DNA of 64,000 bases, taken from positions 1,175 through 65,174 of the IMG/VR virus record IMGVR_UViG_3300035698_017721. The stretch is one strand, 5' to 3'. The position numbers and the translations under genes are program-made. This stretch comes from a virus. Lineage: Duplodnaviria; Caudoviricetes. Below are positions 8,538 through 62,834 of the stretch, piece by piece (within the stretch, counting starts at the first letter, position 1; the number at the start of each line of letters is the position of its first letter). The notes under the pieces were generated by a model. It was not told the DNA's origin. It made no database searches and worked only from the letters and a program-made list of their open reading frames with translations.

Positions 8538-9374
8538 CGTATTTGTGTAGAATAAATGAATGTTTTATCAATCGAATATCCTTTGTTTAGTTCTTTTTTA
8601 AATACACTTTGCATATAATTGGATAACTCATTTTTTCCCGTCTTAATTACGGTTTCAATGCTTTCACTGTTCTTAACAGCTACGTGCCCAAAGAATTTTG
8701 ATAGTCTTCCTGTTGGGGTTCTTAACCAACAAATAACCATTGCTGCATTTTTATGATAACTCTGGTTTTCTCTATCGAAATTTGAGTTCATAATTGGCGA
8801 ATACAAGTATGGATTTGGATAACCGCTCGGTATGTTTCGTTCTGTTTTCATTAGTTTGAGATGTCAAACAATAAACAATTAACAATTGGATTTCTTTTTC
8901 TTTTTGGTAGATGTAGATTTTACTAAACCTGCCTTTACGTTGGCAAATTCTCCACCATATTCCGCACTTCCGTTTAGATCATAAGCATATCCATCGTTAC
9001 AAAGAATTACGACGTCCATCTCTCCAGATGGATCTAGCTCTTGAAGTCTTTTTATTATATCTCCTGATTCCATGACGTAAAGATAAGAATAACTTATGAC
9101 AAATAAAAATCAATCCATCGGTTGATCCAATTCATATCGTTCATCATCACCAGGCCACCAATTACAATGGCAAGTGAATTCGCCTCTATGATTAACCCGG
9201 TACAAGTTATTCTGAATCACATCAGAGAATAGTTTACGATCAACTTGTAGGTATTCACCAGTCACAACGGACCAGTTACCATTATCATCTCGCTGGGGTT
9301 CGTCAGTGTAAAGCGTTAACCGATTACCCTTCCAATTTATAGCAAGCCACGTCCATCTAGAATTCAAATTCACA

Positions 9375-12176: not shown

Positions 12177-12600
12177 CTATTAAAACTTTTTTGTCCTTTA
12201 GGAAATTTACAATGTTTGCTGTTGGGTAAGATTGTCTCAGCTCTCCTCCCGGTAAAATCATCTCTACACTAAAATTATTGTGCTCACCCATCCAAGCTCG
12301 TACACCTTGAACCGCCATTTCATATACTTCCCAATGAGCTTTTAAATTCTCTAATGCGTTAGTATCAATTTTTTGTTTTTTAACTGTTTTCTCTTGTGCC
12401 ATTATTATATCGTTTGCACATTATACGAAGAAAGACAAGAAAGTTCCCTAAAATCGGTTAAAGAGACGTTTAATCCACGCCTTGAATCTTTCCCACCGAG
12501 TAGGAATGTGCATAAGATCATAACTAAGAATTTTTTCCAAATGTACTTGGCCATTCATCCACACGACCTTGTGCTCTGGAGGCGATATAAAATTTCTTGT

Positions 12601-16275: not shown

Positions 16276-18078
16276 TTATTTGAATTCACCTCTCAACCAA
16301 AGTTTCCTCGGCATCGAATCTTTTCCGAATGCCATATCTAGATACCGTTTGGCATCCTTATCGTTCTTCAGTTGTTGAAGTTGTTTGTTATTCATTATTA
16401 CTTCCCAATCTTCTTCCGCTAAAGATCCAAGACCTTTTAAGAATCGAATTGAAGATGGTTTTCTTTTACCTTTCAACCAATCGTCGAAGTCAGCTTTATC
16501 AAAGAAGTATTCTCGCTTCTTCCCGTCACCGATCGACAACAATGGTATACGCAATCTAAACAGTCTACCTACTTCAATGATGTAAGGAAACCACTTAAAG
16601 AACAGGTTTACTAACAGTGAGGCAATGTGTCCACCATCTTCATCAGCATCGGCCGCAATAATAACCCTCTTATAACTGAAGTTTCGTTTAGTTCGATCTA
16701 GATCTAGATCTAGAATTTGCATCAGTTCTACGACCTCTTGATTGCTGGATAGATCTGATACAGAACGAACATTCTTGATCTTACCTTTCAATCGGTAAAC
16801 ACCATCAAGTTTGGTATTCCTTTTCTGTAGGATAGATCCCATTGCCGATTCTCCCTCAACGATAAACAAGTTCTCTATTCTCCCAGATGGTGGGAAGTAT
16901 TTAGATGAATTTCGTATATCAACTTTCTTCTTGATCTTCCGAAGTTTCTTGATCTCCGTTTCCATCTTTCGTTCCTCTACTTTCTCAAATAAAGTTTTGA
17001 ATAGATCGGTCGTGTAGAATTTTCTGAATGCTTCTCTGAGGTTATCCTTTATGGTTCCTTCAATCTCACCTCTAGTAGAATCCAACCTGGTTTTATTTTG
17101 GTCACGGAAACGTACAAGTCTTGGTGGTAAATTGAACACCAGGAAAGTCTCATAGAAATGATGTCCTAATTGATCATCCAATTTCGCATTTATAGTCTCG
17201 TTAACGATCCTCTGATGCATCCCAGTACACATGGCTGAGTTGATAGCTGAAAGAGATCCGGAATGGTCGTAGCTCTCATGTATAACGACCGGTCCAATCT
17301 TCGTATCGGCAATGAATGCACCTTTAGGAAAGAACTCTTGATCTAAATCAAATTTCTCGCCATCGAATGTTACATCAAACTTCAATTTCTTAAGAACTGG
17401 ATCACGGCTAAGAATGAACTTCTTAATCACCATCTCGGTTAGTAGGATCTCACGATTCCATTTAGCCTTCTTAAACAAGGTTGATCTAGGTATGAAAGAA
17501 ACAGTCGTTCCGGTAATAGTTTGTTTTTCCCGTTTTATTACAGTTTTTTTATTAGGTATGAATTTATCCCATTCTTTATAAAAAAACGAATTATCATTTC
17601 TAGTTTCTATACTAAAAAAAGAAGAACATATATTAACCAAACTTACACCAAAGCCATTTGTCCCAATAACAGTTTCATCAATATTATCATTGTCAAAATT
17701 TGAACCTGCTCGTAAACAACTGACAGCAGTTTCTATATTAGACAAACCAGAAGACTTGTTTTTCTGTACACCTTTATAAAAACCTGTACCGGTATCTGAT
17801 ACGACTACCTTATTATTTGCTGTATCAAAATCAACAGTAATAGATTTCATTTTACCTTTCATGCGCTTGGCACAATCTATAGCATTATCTAATACTTCGT
17901 GAAATAATTTATAAAACCCGATTGACAAATCGTGGCGTTCCATTACTATTTTACCATTACGAATAATAGGTACTAATTCCTCTGATAAAGTTGTAGAACC
18001 AATATAAACCGAACTTCGTTTTAATACATGTTCCCAATCTTTTAAAACTACAATTTCGTTTTTATCCAATTTTTTCAT
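16276..18078 (-). CDS. DNA topoisomerase II subunit B (gp39+gp60 equivalent, uninterrupted)
   Basis: EHVLKR..YIGS, EVLDNAID, AGSNF, GTNGFG, EGESA, DADEDG, KGLGS. Confidence 0.92.
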   Translation of the reverse strand: MKKLDKNEIVVLKDWEHVLKRSSVYIGSTTLSEELVPIIRNGKIVMERHDLSIGFYKLFHEVLDNAIDCAKRMKGKMKSITVDFDTANNKVVVSDTGTGFYKGVQKNKSSGLSNIETAVSCLRAGSNFDNDNIDETVIGTNGFGVSLVNICSSFFSIETRNDNSFFYKEWDKFIPNKKTVIKREKQTITGTTVSFIPRSTLFKKAKWNREILLTEMVIKKFILSRDPVLKKLKFDVTFDGEKFDLDQEFFPKGAFIADTKIGPVVIHESYDHSGSLSAINSAMCTGMHQRIVNETINAKLDDQLGHHFYETFLVFNLPPRLVRFRDQNKTRLDSTRGEIEGTIKDNLREAFRKFYTTDLFKTLFEKVEERKMETEIKKLRKIKKKVDIRNSSKYFPPSGRIENLFIVEGESAMGSILQKRNTKLDGVYRLKGKIKNVRSVSDLSSNQEVVELMQILDLDLDRTKRNFSYKRVIIAADADEDGGHIASLLVNLFFKWFPYIIEVGRLFRLRIPLLSIGDGKKREYFFDKADFDDWLKGKRKPSSIRFLKGLGSLAEEDWEVIMNNKQLQQLKNDKDAKRYLDMAFGKDSMPRKLWLRGEFK

Positions 18079-18127
18079 AAGCACTAATGGTATATACATT
18101 ATATACAAAAATTAACCGTTAGTTGCA

Positions 18128-47065: not shown

Positions 47066-47139
47066 GGGGCTGTAGTTCAGCTGGTAAGAACGCCGATCTC
47101 TAAAATCGGATGTCGCGGGTTCGAGCCCCGTCAGCCTCG
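47066..47139 (+). tRNA. Amber suppressor tRNA (anticodon CTA)
   Basis: CCGAT-CTCTAAA-ATCGG; complete cloverleaf; G73. Confidence 0.85.
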
Positions 47140-47144
47140 CAAAT

Positions 47145-47219
47145 GGGAATATAGCTCAGTCCGGTTAGAGCGGGAGTCTCTAAAACTCTTCGTCGTGGGT
47201 TCGAATCCCACTATTCCTT
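47145..47219 (+). tRNA. Amber suppressor tRNA (anticodon CTA)
   Basis: GGAGT-CTCTAAA-ACTCT; complete cloverleaf. Confidence 0.85.
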
Positions 47220-47248
47220 CTACATTTATTAACCCTAAAAACAAAGCC

Positions 47249-54695: not shown

Positions 54696-55317
54696 ATGGT
54701 TAGAGGAACAAGAGTACTTATTGGAAACGAGGCTATAAACTACGTTAAGGCGATAGATTCGATACGCTCATGTCTTCATCGCAGCAGGCTATCAAGAAAT
54801 CATTTTACCTAATCTGTGGGAACAGAAGACGTTCACAGATAAGGCTGGTCCAGAGATCCTGGGTCAGATGTATACATTCAATGATAAGAAGGGTCGGGAG
54901 ATCTGTTTATTGCCAGAGGCTACGGCCGTTGTCCAAGAGCTATTCAAAACTCAATGGCAGAATGCAATGAAGAAACCGGTCCGAGTGTTCTACACTCAGA
55001 AATGTTATAGGTACGAAAGGCCACAGAAAGGACGATACAGGGAATTTACCCAGATCGGATTGGAAAGGCTCGGAGGCACTGATGGCAAGGAAGAGGTAAT
55101 AGGACTCCTTAGAAGCTGTCTAAACAGCTTTAATATTGATTATAAGCTCAACGATACGGTCAAACGTGGTCTAGACTATTATGTCGAAGACGGGTTTGAA
55201 GTAGAGGTGGAATCCCTTGGTGCACAAAAGCAGATCGCCGGTGGTGGTCGTTACGATTGTGGAATTGGGTGGGCCATCGGTTTGGATCGGATTTTACTTC
55301 TACTTAATCAAAAATAA
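54696..55317 (+). CDS. hisS: Minimal histidyl-tRNA synthetase catalytic core (about 206 aa) with a +1 frameshift near 54768
   Basis: MVRGTR; GYQEIILPNLW..MYTFNDKKGREICLLPEAT; YRYERPQKGRYREFTQIGLE; RGLDYY; GGGRYD; GWAIGLDRI. Confidence 0.8.
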
Positions 55318-58349: not shown

Positions 58350-59576
58350 ATGGACGTAAAAAGAAAAATCATAATGGACATCAATAAAAGAAACGACATG
58401 GGCGTAGAAAGAAAAATCATAATGGGTGGAGGTACATTCCAGCCGATAGCAAATCATTTATCCTTATCGGCTCCGGCCTTTGGTAATACAGCCAAACAAC
58501 TTTATGAATGGATGAAGGATATTCCTGGAACAGAATTGGCTCTTACCAAAATGGCCGATCCTAACAGTAATATGGTTACAAATCAAGACGTGGAAAAATA
58601 TGTCTTGTCTCTATTGAAAGATCCGACTGTTAAATTGATCGTGTGTAGCGTTGCCTTCTGTGACTATGAATACACTGATGTTAATTTCCATGGTGACCGA
58701 TTCAAGGAAGTACATCCTACAGAGAAGATCATTGACCGGATTAGAAGAGTAAGACCCGATATTTTTCTAGTTGGATTTAAGACTACTACGAATGCTACAG
58801 TAGAAGAACAGCATTTGATTGGACTTAAAATGATGAAGAGATCTAAATGTAATTTGGTGTTGGCCAATGATACGATCACACGTAAGAACATCATTATCAC
58901 ACCAGAGGAATCTTATTATGGAGAGCATTACAATAATCGTAATCGTACTTTATATGAGTTGCTCAATATGATTGAGATGCGGATGGATGCGACTTATACC
59001 AGGACAGAATTCATAGAATGTGCTAATACATTTAAGATCAATATACTTTCACCCAATATGAGAAGTGTGCTTCACTATCTTGTAAATCATGGTGGATTCA
59101 TTGAGAACAACGGTAATGGATTTACACCTGGACATTTCTGTACACGATTGCAATCTGATGAGTTTGCATCGTCACAAAGGAAGGCAGACCACAATAAAGT
59201 ATTTACTGAAGGTGTTTCACTGGTCAAAGTGGTAGACGACAGATTCCTGGTTACAGGAACTAGAAAGGCTAGTGTCGGTGCTAAGAGTCAGTGGGAGTTG
59301 CTAAAAGCCTACCCAGAGTATCAGAACATCATTCATACACATAGTCCCATTAGATCCAGTTCATCGATACCTAGAGTATCCCAGAAGCCATATCAATGCG
59401 GTAGTCTCGAATGTGGAATGAACACGCTCAATGGAATGAAAGATTTCGGGGATGGTATTCAAGCAGTTTACCTTGATAAGCATGGACCGAACATCATGTT
59501 CAAGAATGATACCCCAGCTTATATGGTAGTAGAATTCATGCGAGACAATTTCCATATCGGTAGGAAAACGACATGA
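58350..59576 (+). CDS. CoaB/DFP-like ligase domain fused to a class II aldolase domain
   Basis: GGGT..PI, AFCDY, FLVGFKTTT, CNLVLAND; TPGHF, IIHTHSP, DKHG. Confidence 0.7.
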   Translation: MDVKRKIIMDINKRNDMGVERKIIMGGGTFQPIANHLSLSAPAFGNTAKQLYEWMKDIPGTELALTKMADPNSNMVTNQDVEKYVLSLLKDPTVKLIVCSVAFCDYEYTDVNFHGDRFKEVHPTEKIIDRIRRVRPDIFLVGFKTTTNATVEEQHLIGLKMMKRSKCNLVLANDTITRKNIIITPEESYYGEHYNNRNRTLYELLNMIEMRMDATYTRTEFIECANTFKINILSPNMRSVLHYLVNHGGFIENNGNGFTPGHFCTRLQSDEFASSQRKADHNKVFTEGVSLVKVVDDRFLVTGTRKASVGAKSQWELLKAYPEYQNIIHTHSPIRSSSSIPRVSQKPYQCGSLECGMNTLNGMKDFGDGIQAVYLDKHGPNIMFKNDTPAYMVVEFMRDNFHIGRKTT

Positions 59577-60449: not shown

Positions 60450-61014
60450 TTATTGCCAATATTCATCATCATCCTCATCATATCCATAATCAGGATCTCC
60501 TTTTAAATAATTGAATATCACATTACCATCAGAGTCTTCCTCAAAAAAGAATTCTTTACCCTCTCCAATAGCACCTTCTGCCCATTCACCATTTTCACCA
60601 TCGATCAAATGCATATACACAAAGACCCAATCTGGTGAACCCTTGTCTTTCCAACCAAATTCACCATTCCAAGTTTCTTCTTCCTTTACTTCTTGAAACA
60701 AAACTTTCGGGGCCCAGATTCCATAGCCATATTGATTACTCATACCCGACCATTCAGACTGTGCTTCAATATCATAGTTTTCGTGTACTGGTGCATACAT
60801 CTTTTTTCCGTTTACTTTAACCAGTATATAAACATCAGGACCGTATCGAGAAATTATATTATTCTCCTTTAATTTTTCTGATGCCGCCTTTGCATCTTTT
60901 TCATCATTAAATAAAAAATCCGGGTTTAATTTTTTAAACACCTCGAATAACTTCTTGTGAATATTCAGTAGATTCACTTTCGTTGAGCTGAGTAAATGAT
61001 TTAATGTGTTTCAT
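60450..61014 (-). CDS. Acidic protein with CTS-like N-terminus; +1 frameshift near 60945
   Basis: MKHIKSFTQLNES from ATG 61014 joins the 175-aa ORF if one base is removed. Confidence 0.5.
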
Positions 61015-61085
61015 CTATAAATTGGTTAGTTCACTTTATATATTGAAATTTTTCCACCAAAAACAATCAGATCAAAATATATTTA

Positions 61086-61119
61086 TATCTTTGAAACAAT
61101 TTGAAGCAAGAGATATATA
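61086..61119 (+). promoter_or_regulatory. TATCTTTG (-7 box) and GATATATA promoter pair
   Basis: Same arrangement as 52348-52387. Confidence 0.65.
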
Positions 61120-61133
61120 ACACACAAGAAACA

Positions 61134-61202
61134 ATGTTTACAACAATTATCATAGCCCGCATTATTAGACGCCAGAACAGCGTCCCGGGATTGTATTGTT
61201 GA
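61134..61202 (+). CDS. Putative attenuator leader peptide MFTTIIIARIIRRQNSVPGLYC
   Basis: Ile x5 (ATT, ATC, ATA) and Arg x3 (CGC, AGA, CGC) within codons 5-13. Confidence 0.75.
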   Translation: MFTTIIIARIIRRQNSVPGLYC

Positions 61203-61224
61203 AAATTTAGATAACGATTTTTAA

Positions 61225-61264
61225 ACAAAGGCCTCGGGATTAAGTTCTCGGGCCTTTGTCTTTT
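61225..61264 (+). terminator. Terminator hairpin of the Ile/Arg attenuator
   Basis: ACAAAGGCCTCGGGA...TCTCGGGCCTTTGT-CTTTT, ending just before the first tRNA-like gene. Confidence 0.78.
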
Positions 61265-61266
61265 AT

Positions 61267-61343
61267 TGGCGTGTAACCAGGATGCCTGATACGCATTACT
61301 AAGGTAGCGGTTGAAAACATGAGTTCGAATCTCATTTCGCCAA
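61267..61343 (+). tRNA. Atypical tRNA-Ile(GAT)-like RNA lacking a D-arm
   Basis: TGGCG/CGCCA; GATGC-CTGATAC-GCATT; ATGAG-TTCGAAT-CTCAT. Confidence 0.5.
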
Positions 61344-61390
61344 CTTTTCTGAACCTATATCAGATATATAAATAAATAAAATTATATATT

Positions 61391-61954
61391 ATGGCTAAAG
61401 GTTTAAAAATACCAATTTTGGAATTACGAGAATTGGGTCTATCATATAAAGAAATATGCAAAGAATTAAATTGTACGATCGGTGTGGTATCTTATCATTG
61501 TAGTGGTGACGGTAAAATAGTAACAGATAACCAAAAAATATCGGAAATTATACAAGCACAAATAAAGGAATATTGTAAAAATCATACTGATAAAGAAGCA
61601 ATTAAACATTTTGGATTATGTAGAAGCACAATTAAAAAATACAGAGATGATAAAGTAAAAACAATATTAACAAAAGAAGAAAAAATATCAAAAAACAGAA
61701 GTAGCGTAAGCAATAGACGGAAAAAATTGAAACAAATGGCTATAGAATATTTAGGTGGATCGTGTAAAATATGTAACTATAATAAATGCGCAAGTGCTTT
61801 AGAATTCCACCATATAGATCCAACACAAAAAGATTTTAATATTTGTAGAGGTACTATAGCATGGCATAAGATGCAAAAAGAATTAGACAAATGTGTTTTA
61901 TTGTGTTGTAGATGTCATAGAGAATTACATGCAGATTTAATTATGGCCCAGTAG
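61391..61954 (+). CDS. HNH homing endonuclease with N-terminal HTH
   Basis: GGSCKICNYNKC..ALEFHHIDP..CVLLCCRCHRELH. Confidence 0.85.
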   Translation: MAKGLKIPILELRELGLSYKEICKELNCTIGVVSYHCSGDGKIVTDNQKISEIIQAQIKEYCKNHTDKEAIKHFGLCRSTIKKYRDDKVKTILTKEEKISKNRSSVSNRRKKLKQMAIEYLGGSCKICNYNKCASALEFHHIDPTQKDFNICRGTIAWHKMQKELDKCVLLCCRCHRELHADLIMAQ

Positions 61955-62016
61955 CTCAACTGGACAGAGCATCGTCAAGGCGAGGGTTGGGGGTTCGAAT
62001 CCCTCCTGGGTCACCA
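61945..62016 (+). tRNA. tRNA-Arg-like body with the anticodon loop deleted
   Basis: Intact acceptor, D and T arms and CCA; anticodon arm TCGTC-AA-GGCGA. Confidence 0.65.
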
Positions 62017-62019
62017 TTT

Positions 62020-62092
62020 GGTCCCGTAGTTCAAATGGAAGAACGGTGTCTTTCTACGGCATTGGTTGGGGGTTCGATTCCCTCCGGGATTA
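62020..62092 (+). tRNA. tRNA-Arg (TCT)
   Basis: GTGTC-TTTCTAC-GGCAT. Confidence 0.8.
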
Positions 62093-62138
62093 CATAAATG
62101 TTATCTTTGGATAACAAACCGAGATATGAAAATATTTC

Positions 62139-62212
62139 GGGCCTATAGCTCAGTTGGTTAGAGCTCTTGACTCATAATCAAGCGGTCGGGGGTTCAAATC
62201 CCTCTGGGCCCA
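62139..62212 (+). tRNA. tRNA with CAT anticodon, probably Ile2 (lysidine type); Met not excluded
   Basis: CTTGA-CTCATAA-TCAAG; GGGCCTA acceptor resembles bacterial Ile2. Confidence 0.8.
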
Positions 62213-62342
62213 CATAAATTTGGAGTTCGATGCCTGGGTGGGCATGTGGCGATCTATAGTAACTCGAGCTATGTATAGATAATCGCGGTATAACTAAGAG
62301 CCACAGTATAACCGCGCCACCCAGGGATCGATCATCAATAAT

Positions 62343-62414
62343 GGTTTCATAGTTCAATGGATAGAACGTTGGTTTCCTAAACTGAAAATCAGGGTTCGAA
62401 TCCCTGTGAGACCA
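62343..62414 (+). tRNA. tRNA-Arg (CCT)
   Basis: TTGGT-TTCCTAA-ACTGA. Confidence 0.8.
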
Positions 62415-62634
62415 CTTAGAATAAGTCGGCAGATTTATCTGTACCTCCCGGTGCGGTAGACAAGCCATCTGATCTAAAAATGTGTACGAGTAAGCTCCGT
62501 ATACAGGCTTAGTGAAGGACCGATTCGGAATGATATGATGAACGTTGGTAGACGTGAAGTATTATTGCAGCAGTCGGGTTAAGGTGCCAGACGGAATTTA
62601 CAGCCGTAGATTGTCACGATTTATTCTTTTTATT

Positions 62635-62708
62635 GGCCTTGTAGCTCAACTGGATAGAGCACCTGATTACGGATCAGGAGGTTCGGGGTTCGAATCCCTG
62701 CTAGGTCA
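62635..62708 (+). tRNA. tRNA-Arg (ACG)
   Basis: CCTGA-TTACGGA-TCAGG. Confidence 0.9.
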
Positions 62709-62722
62709 CTTTGATGATACAT

Positions 62723-62795
62723 GGCTCCGTAGCTCAATGGATAGAGCACCCGGTTTCGGCCCGGACGGTTGTGAGTTCGAATCCCACCGGGGTCA
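62723..62795 (+). tRNA. tRNA-Arg (TCG)
   Basis: CCCGG-TTTCGGC-CCGGA. Confidence 0.8.
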
Positions 62796-62834
62796 CTTTC
62801 GGTCTTCGGATTTTTTATTTCCGAAGACCGATAT

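Follow-up and report, generated by a model that had tools for sequence, protein, structure and literature searches.

A probable leader-peptide attenuator ahead of a phage tRNA operon, with related modules in other large phages

Can a phage gate an operon of transfer RNA (tRNA) genes by the speed at which the codons of a short leader are decoded? The question was raised by positions 61134 to 61264 of the window, the window being the whole 64,000-nucleotide stretch analyzed here (positions 1,175 to 65,174 of IMG/VR record IMGVR_UViG_3300035698_017721, a 65-kb virus record of the Caudoviricetes). The locus is flanked by a leftward gene (60450-60977) and, on its other side, by a rightward group of tRNA genes. 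An earlier note, made by a model from the letters and the open reading frames, had read it as an isoleucine (Ile) and arginine (Arg) attenuator ahead of an array covering all Arg codons plus Ile, and its coordinates were found to be exact to the base. We consider it quite likely that the locus is a ribosome-mediated (leader-peptide) transcription attenuator gating the tRNA operon, the regulation itself being deduced from sequence and folding models. This reading is supported by the anatomy of the locus and its predicted alternative folds, by homology to a leader family in related phages, by covariation of the antiterminator within that family, and by the correspondence of leader codons with cargo tRNAs in many operons, including four other leader types that match their own cargo.

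The first line of evidence is the codon content of the leader, a short open reading frame (ORF) whose start and stop codons stand ahead of the genes thought to be regulated (Table 1). Codons 5 to 13 comprise five Ile and three Arg codons with one Ala codon in their midst. The three Ile codons in a row and the use of both Arg codon boxes, to which the earlier note had drawn attention, were confirmed at 61146-61172. ATT, ATC, and ATA are consecutive at 61146-61154 and two further ATT codons occupy 61161-61166, while the Arg codons are CGC (61158 and 61170) and AGA (61167). A nine-codon span with eight Ile or Arg codons was found in only 1 of 600 short ORFs (ATG start, 12 to 45 codons) in the 65-kb contig, the runner-up value being six, which was reached by five ORFs. 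Ile and Arg together make up 10.8% of the codons in the 37 long ORFs of the window, and at that background the binomial chance of eight in nine was calculated by hand to be approximately 1.5e-7 per span.

The codon cluster is cognate to what the operon supplies, namely, a tRNA-like RNA with a GAU (Ile) anticodon loop, a CAT tRNA, and four Arg tRNAs whose anticodons jointly read all six Arg codons. The Arg tRNAs listed in the earlier note (TCT, CCT, ACG, and TCG) were all called by ARAGORN. Its two Ile assignments held in part. The GAU anticodon loop of the first RNA is present, in what proved to be a noncanonical, D-armless tRNA-like molecule rather than an ordinary tRNA, and the CAT tRNA is present at 62139, where the ARAGORN call is Met, the proposed Ile2 identity being putative.

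The predicted terminator, consisting of the 61225-61259 hairpin and its T-run, lies between the leader and the regulated genes and ends 1 base ahead of the GAU tRNA-like RNA. Since equilibrium folds always kept this terminator, nascent-RNA folds were used instead, in which the transcript was folded before the terminator 3' arm was made and the ribosome was modeled as a footprint masking all RNA behind its front, which is a simplification. Without a ribosome, a hairpin between regions 1 and 2 (61136-61159 with 61186-61206; approximately −19 kcal/mol) was predicted, which sequesters region 2 in the untranslated leader and leaves the terminator 5' arm free. The GACGC/GCGTC protector proposed earlier does appear in the minimum-energy fold, pairing 61168-61172 with 61180-61184, but it is only the tip of this longer hairpin. 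When the footprint was placed on any of the Ile or Arg codons, the antiterminator was freed, with 61182-61207 pairing with 61216-61240 at −15.1 to −18.3 kcal/mol and occupying 61224-61240, nearly the entire terminator 5' arm. The previously suggested pairing of 61182-61189 with 61233-61240 forms in this state. When the footprint was placed at the stop codon, region 2 was covered and the antiterminator was blocked, only −0.2 kcal/mol of structure was left, and the terminator was free to form. The whole leader folded better than its shuffled versions (z = −2.85), 2 of 200 shuffles being equal to it.

These folds suggest the following course of events. Transcription would start shortly after the box at 61086, and a ribosome would translate the 22-codon leader. 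With Ile- or Arg-tRNA in short supply, the ribosome would stall on the codon block at 61146-61172 and cover region 1, leaving region 2 to pair with region 3; the terminator would thereby be blocked, and RNA polymerase would proceed into the GAU tRNA-like RNA, the CAT tRNA, and the four Arg tRNAs. With fast decoding, the ribosome would come to cover region 2 at the stop codon, the terminator would form, and transcription would stop 1 base before the first tRNA-like gene. With no translation, regions 1 and 2 would pair and the terminator would form as well. Since the test codons are read by the very tRNAs produced, the arrangement would constitute negative feedback on decoding capacity. We infer the promoter, the translation of the leader, the stalling, and the actual switch from this arrangement.

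Table 1. Positions of the leader, its predicted RNA elements, and the downstream operon in the window
Feature	Position	Strand	Details
Promoter-like 8-base box (putative)	61086..61093	+	48 bases before leader start
Leader ORF	61134..61202	+	ATG at 61134, TGA at 61200-61202; 22 codons plus stop
Region 1 (predicted)	61136..61159	+	5' strand of protector hairpin; pairs with 61186-61206 in unconstrained folds
Regulatory codon block	61146..61172	+	5 Ile and 3 Arg among 9 codons
Region 2 (predicted)	61182..61207	+	Alternative partners: region 1 or region 3
Region 3 (predicted)	61216..61240	+	Spacer plus terminator 5' arm; 3' strand of antiterminator in constrained nascent-RNA folds
Intrinsic terminator plus T-run (predicted)	61225..61267	+	Stem 61225-61239 with 61246-61259; −21.5 kcal/mol
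tRNA-like RNA with GAU (Ile) anticodon loop	61267..61343	+	Rfam tRNA, 29.2 bits (cut-off, 29)
Homing-endonuclease-like ORF inside operon	61391..61954	+	187 amino acids; DNA matches HNH endonuclease-annotated genes of other phages
Second tRNA-like RNA	61945..62013	+	Shortened anticodon arm; Rfam tRNA, 50 bits
tRNA cargo	62020..62796	+	Arg-TCT 62020, CAT 62139, Arg-CCT 62343, Arg-ACG 62635, Arg-TCG 62723

The agreement between leader and cargo was found to extend well beyond this locus. A profile of a 408-amino-acid protein of the window (58350-59576) led to 19 viral loci, two of which carry tRNA blocks sorted by amino acid. Across 16 scanned stretches, from the window and five related records, every main tRNA block stands behind a short ORF and a terminator, and the amino acids of the ORF are those of the tRNAs that follow. 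Four leader types were distinguished, Asn/Ile/His/Met/Ser/Trp/Arg, Cys/Val/Leu, Phe/Asp/Ala/Glu, and Lys/Thr/Tyr/Gln/Pro/Gly, which together name all 20 amino acids. For 12 modules of the four types, the best 10-codon window held a mean of 8.1 codons for the module's own cargo, versus 2.5 for the cargo of other types, and none of 20,000 permutations matched this. The match is probably understated because ARAGORN misses odd tRNAs. The relative G006 (loci L149 to L152; 368.5 kb and complete according to CheckV) has 65 tRNA matches, all on one strand. By a hand count from the coordinates, 50 of these stand behind four leaders, one per type, and the other 15 occur in small groups without a leader. 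Among 80 metagenome loci, the 38 that were examined (L068 to L105) yielded four modules and no close relative of the window leader; one of the four, L084, is a new module of the Thr/Tyr/Gln/Pro/Lys/Gly type.

A motif built from two leaders of the first type and scanned against viral contigs gave a family of 33 leaders at 32 loci (L034 to L065), on contigs of up to 368 kb from related phages of approximately 360 kb. The family codon block comprises Asn, Ile, His, Met, Ser, Trp, and Arg, with matching tRNAs behind it. Wherever at least 747 bases of downstream DNA were available (28 leaders), tRNAs followed in every case, nearly all of them His, Trp, Ser, Asn, Ile-GAT, CAT, and Arg; for the remaining 5 of the 33 leaders, the downstream DNA spans no more than 370 bases. 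Extra tRNAs were observed at five family loci (Thr at four, Tyr at one). The window leader and the family share a layout of leader, short spacer, terminator, and tRNAs, in which the leader 3' part pairs with the terminator 5' arm. When aligned, they share the start codon, an AGA-CGN Arg pair, and the Asn-Ser that follows this pair. Where the family has His, Met, Ser, Asn, or Trp, the window leader has Ile, Ala, or Arg; it has lost His, Trp, and most Ser and Asn positions and gained Ile and Arg.

The start codon and the frame are conserved across 22 aligned homologues of the leader, wobble positions vary synonymously among family members, and the Ser codon closing the block has switched from the AGY to the TCN box in three of them. 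The box switch and the synonymous variation suggest that what is selected is the amino acid or its tRNA. These data also bear on the proposal that tRNA is recognized by the RNA itself, as in a T-box and without translation, which would account for regulated genes that are tRNAs and for a leader that displays their codons. This was judged the least probable of the explanations considered, given that start and stop codons are conserved in frame, that the wobble variation and the Ser box switch occur, and that fourteen different consecutive codons could hardly act as specifiers. In addition, no T-box model was present among the nine Rfam matches at E ≤10 in 61050-61400.

Further support for a leader-peptide attenuator came from a twin module in the same phage (52401-52535), which shares the box, the spacing, the three fold states, and the design of the terminator. 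Behind it are Trp, Trp, His, His, and Ile-TAT tRNAs, and His, Trp, and Ile codons occur in its leader, which preserves the Ile-Asn-Ile-His part of the family block as well as Trp. When the two leaders of this phage were scored by their best 10-codon window, own cargo exceeded other cargo for both (8 versus 5 for leader B and 6 versus 4 for leader A). A family leader would gate one long operon, whereas in the window phage the operon is split. Since the window leader aligns with the family and the twin leader keeps other parts of it, this phage appears from its sequence to have cut an ancestral operon in two, with each leader keeping only the codon kinds of its own cargo.

The alternative that the short ORFs encode micropeptides with functions of their own, their resemblance to the tRNA cargo being incidental, draws on the type 1 family peptide, which is highly conserved in order and composition over 33 leaders, and on the Cys/Val/Leu leaders, which resemble signal peptides. 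It is nevertheless very unlikely. Four leader types of unrelated composition match their own cargo at a level that the permutations did not reach, and the leaders of this phage have changed in composition along with the re-partitioned cargo, which a micropeptide function does not predict. The terminator also stands at a fixed short distance past each ORF, with an arm that pairs with the ORF 3' part.

The pairing between region 2 and the terminator 5' arm was assessed within the family. The terminator lies approximately 20 to 30 bases past the stop codon in all 24 distinct members; its stems differ between members, and the 3' part of each leader differs along with them. In a swap test of 22 distinct pairs, the cognate duplexes averaged −11.7 kcal/mol, compared to −8.19 ± 0.52 kcal/mol for permuted partners (0 of 5,000 permutations), and the window ranked first of 22, with −13.4 kcal/mol for its own arm versus a mean of −5.7 kcal/mol with the arms of the 21 others. 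RNAalifold, applied to the alignment cut before the 3' arm, predicted that region 2 and the 5' arm form a helix, all six pairs of which are kept through changes on both sides in some sequences. Within this helix, 88.8% of cells pair, versus 65.8 ± 2.6% in shuffled alignments (0 of 500 reached this value), and the covariation score was 0.609 versus 0.253 (again 0 of 500), though these shuffle counts are not probabilities, because the aligned sequences are related. Slid controls paired in 15 to 50% of cells, and the MAFFT alignment contains register shifts between stem classes. The earlier note had named covariation of this pairing in homologs as a check, and for the family the outcome was positive. 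The placement of the codons also fits the attenuator model, as the family test-codon block ends where the footprint would start covering region 2.

A number of observations weigh against the attenuator interpretation. The window leader retains Asn and Ser codons, and no Asn or Ser tRNA stands behind it. The link to Ile depends on the D-armless GAU RNA and on a CAT tRNA whose Ile2 identity is putative, since Ile-TAT, a canonical tRNA, belongs to the twin operon. A second copy of the promoter-like box (62102-62109), 29 bases before the CAT tRNA, may express this tRNA and three of the Arg tRNAs, bypassing the attenuator. The antiterminator alone is moderately above chance (−17.5 versus −11.0 ± 2.7 kcal/mol), 29 of 1,000 shuffles of region 2 being as good. 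Because the terminator persists in every equilibrium fold with a masked ribosome, the switch has to be kinetic; the terminator prevails at equilibrium in known attenuators too. In the family alignment, the window sequence has gaps where the columns covary, its own helix being located slightly upstream (by a few bases), and the covariation therefore supports a homologous helix rather than the exact pairs of the window. The attenuator would also depend on coupled transcription and translation in the host.

The family contributes further points of this kind. Cognate pairing is weak in three members, which ranked 12, 15, and 16 of 22. The window modules have a 1:2 protector and a stop codon beside region 2, and most family members have neither; in these, region 2 lies approximately 30 bases before the stop codon, so a ribosome that has reached the stop codon would leave it uncovered. 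Most members are predicted to adopt the antiterminator fold even when untranslated, and the models do not account for how a fast ribosome would enforce termination in them.

This geometry bears on the possibility that the leader is translated and senses decoding speed, with an output through Rho-type polarity or through processing or stability of the precursor RNA instead of antitermination at the hairpin. Most family members are without the 1:2 hairpin and a ribosome at their stop codon would miss region 2, indicating that the classical geometry is not general, and the terminator abuts the tRNA, where RNase P would cut. We nonetheless regard this as unlikely, on the grounds that the pairing of region 2 with the 5' arm covaries, that each of the 24 distinct family members carries a terminator, and that the window module has the full classical geometry. 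The modest significance of the antiterminator by itself, together with a hairpin that is strong and terminator-like on both strands, might instead be taken to indicate a plain promoter-proximal terminator or a small RNA beside a chance ORF, with no regulation. That is highly improbable for an ORF that stands alone among 600 in its Ile and Arg content, has homology to a conserved leader family, and is accompanied by a twin module in the same phage.

Leader-peptide attenuation is the textbook mechanism for amino-acid operons. Enterobacterial attenuators of this kind include the trp, his, and phe leaders, and several are multivalent, such as the thr leader (Thr, Ile) and the ilv leaders (Ile, Leu, Val). 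The window module resembles them in its short ORF with a run of test codons, its 1:2, 2:3, and 3:4 hairpins, and its intrinsic terminator, all as predicted here, and, as deduced from sequence and folds, in a stalled ribosome that would select the antiterminator and in the sensing of more than one amino acid. It differs in being phage-borne and in having tRNA genes as cargo rather than biosynthetic enzymes, and its product would consequently act directly on the sensed step, decoding, and not on amino-acid supply. The window leader also has no significant similarity to Rfam leader models. At the leader region, His_leader (RF00514) scored 18.7 bits against a cut-off of 49 and Thr_leader (RF00506) scored 19 bits against a cut-off of 55, the latter on the minus strand, both being below threshold.

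In the bacterial pheST operon, a Phe-rich leader controls a synthetase in response to a single amino acid. The likeness to the window module is that a component of the translation machinery is controlled by its own sensed amino acid, the difference being that the cargo is a synthetase and not tRNAs. T-box riboswitches recognize tRNA by direct binding, with no need for translation; they have in common with the window module that expression of translation genes is tied to a specific tRNA state through a choice between terminator and antiterminator. The mechanism of the enterobacterial phe leader mentioned above is described in PMC3082878. The nearest published system found, according to the abstracts of its sources, is a long tRNA array on a bacterial megaplasmid of Anabaena, which is inducible and repressed by TrcR (PMC8421152, PMC10272220). 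It is a supernumerary tRNA operon that is silent until translation is impaired, as the window operon would be. Its mechanism is different, with a protein repressor and no codon specificity, and the abstracts describe no leader peptide (PMC8421152, PMC10272220). Full-text literature searches on this question found no leader-peptide attenuator ahead of tRNA genes and none employed by a phage. One candidate comparison, with attenuator-like leaders of the Escherichia coli tRNA-Phe genes pheV and pheU, was dropped: the K-12 sequence upstream of pheV shows none, and the pheU gap is approximately 106 bases.

The data support the application of a known mechanism to phage tRNA operons. The present locus adds evolutionary evidence, as leader codons are tied to cargo by an operon that has been split and whose leaders have been re-tuned. 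If the reading is correct, phage tRNA supply would be demand-driven and specific for each codon family, which bears on why large phages carry tRNAs and on how they cope with mismatch to, or destruction of, the host tRNAs. More broadly, it seems reasonably likely that a clade of approximately 360-kb phages runs most of its tRNAs as a modular homeostat of decoding capacity and that the window represents this system in evolution, with the codons and not the peptide under selection. Each leader would then act as a checklist that gauges how fast its codons are translated and, when decoding slows, opens the tRNA operon behind it and no other, the slowing being a possible consequence of host tRNA depletion or of cleavage by an anticodon nuclease. 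The cutting of the ancestral operon, with daughter leaders rewritten to their own cargo, would amount to a natural experiment. The module of approximately 170 bases could also be used as a portable device for sensing how fast chosen codons are decoded.

Of the remaining features, the 8-base box at 61086 is a putative promoter. The identical 8-mer has four copies in the window, all on the plus strand (52348, at the twin leader; 56102; 61086; and 62102), and the box at 61086 fits the Bacteroidota −7 consensus. A degenerate form of the box was not enriched in the window (24 and 28 sites, versus approximately 36 expected). In one relative, all three leaders (L002 at ~12200-12230 and ~18060-18090; L020 at ~8885-8905) share the same 5' untranslated stretch, with a small GC hairpin with a four-base loop right before the start codon.

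Other searches for relatives of this phage were largely negative. No relatives were found in viral contigs or the protein collection for a neighboring 175-amino-acid protein, or in viral contigs for the 408-amino-acid protein as a single query. Zero matches were returned for a back-translated pattern of the leader peptide in viral contigs and for a pattern from the GAU tRNA-like RNA. No RNA run containing the stretch turned up, and the DNA contigs that matched it were short identical fragments and conserved tRNA portions of other organisms, which gave no information on variation or expression. By blastn against phage records, only partial matches to the endonuclease and tRNAs were obtained, covering at most 13% of the query, and blastn, protein, and pattern searches together gave no close relative of this phage.

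Within the operon, the GAU tRNA-like RNA has an 18-base insertion after the anticodon arm and was not called by ARAGORN at default settings. It is conserved in a related phage (homologue at L028:537-613), where six pairs of the acceptor, anticodon, and T stems have changed in a compensatory manner. Pairing of the insertion with the nucleotides found in place of the D stem would be possible. For the endonuclease-like ORF, Pfam gave helix-turn-helix matches only. The second tRNA-like RNA, which was called by ARAGORN only at a lowered threshold and with a 2-base anticodon, has an encoded CCA end and overlaps the last codons of that ORF. The spacers between array tRNAs at 62214-62342 and 62416-62634 are long and have no Rfam match at E ≤1; in relatives, unassigned tRNA-like calls occur at comparable places between Arg tRNAs. 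Inside the Trp/His operon, beside endonuclease-like ORFs, an ORF at 54868-55317 resembles by eye a piece of a histidyl-tRNA synthetase. Finally, two tRNAs with the anticodon CTA, of the amber suppressor type, are located at 47066-47220 of the window, and such tRNAs are also present in the relatives L020, L029, L031, and L149.
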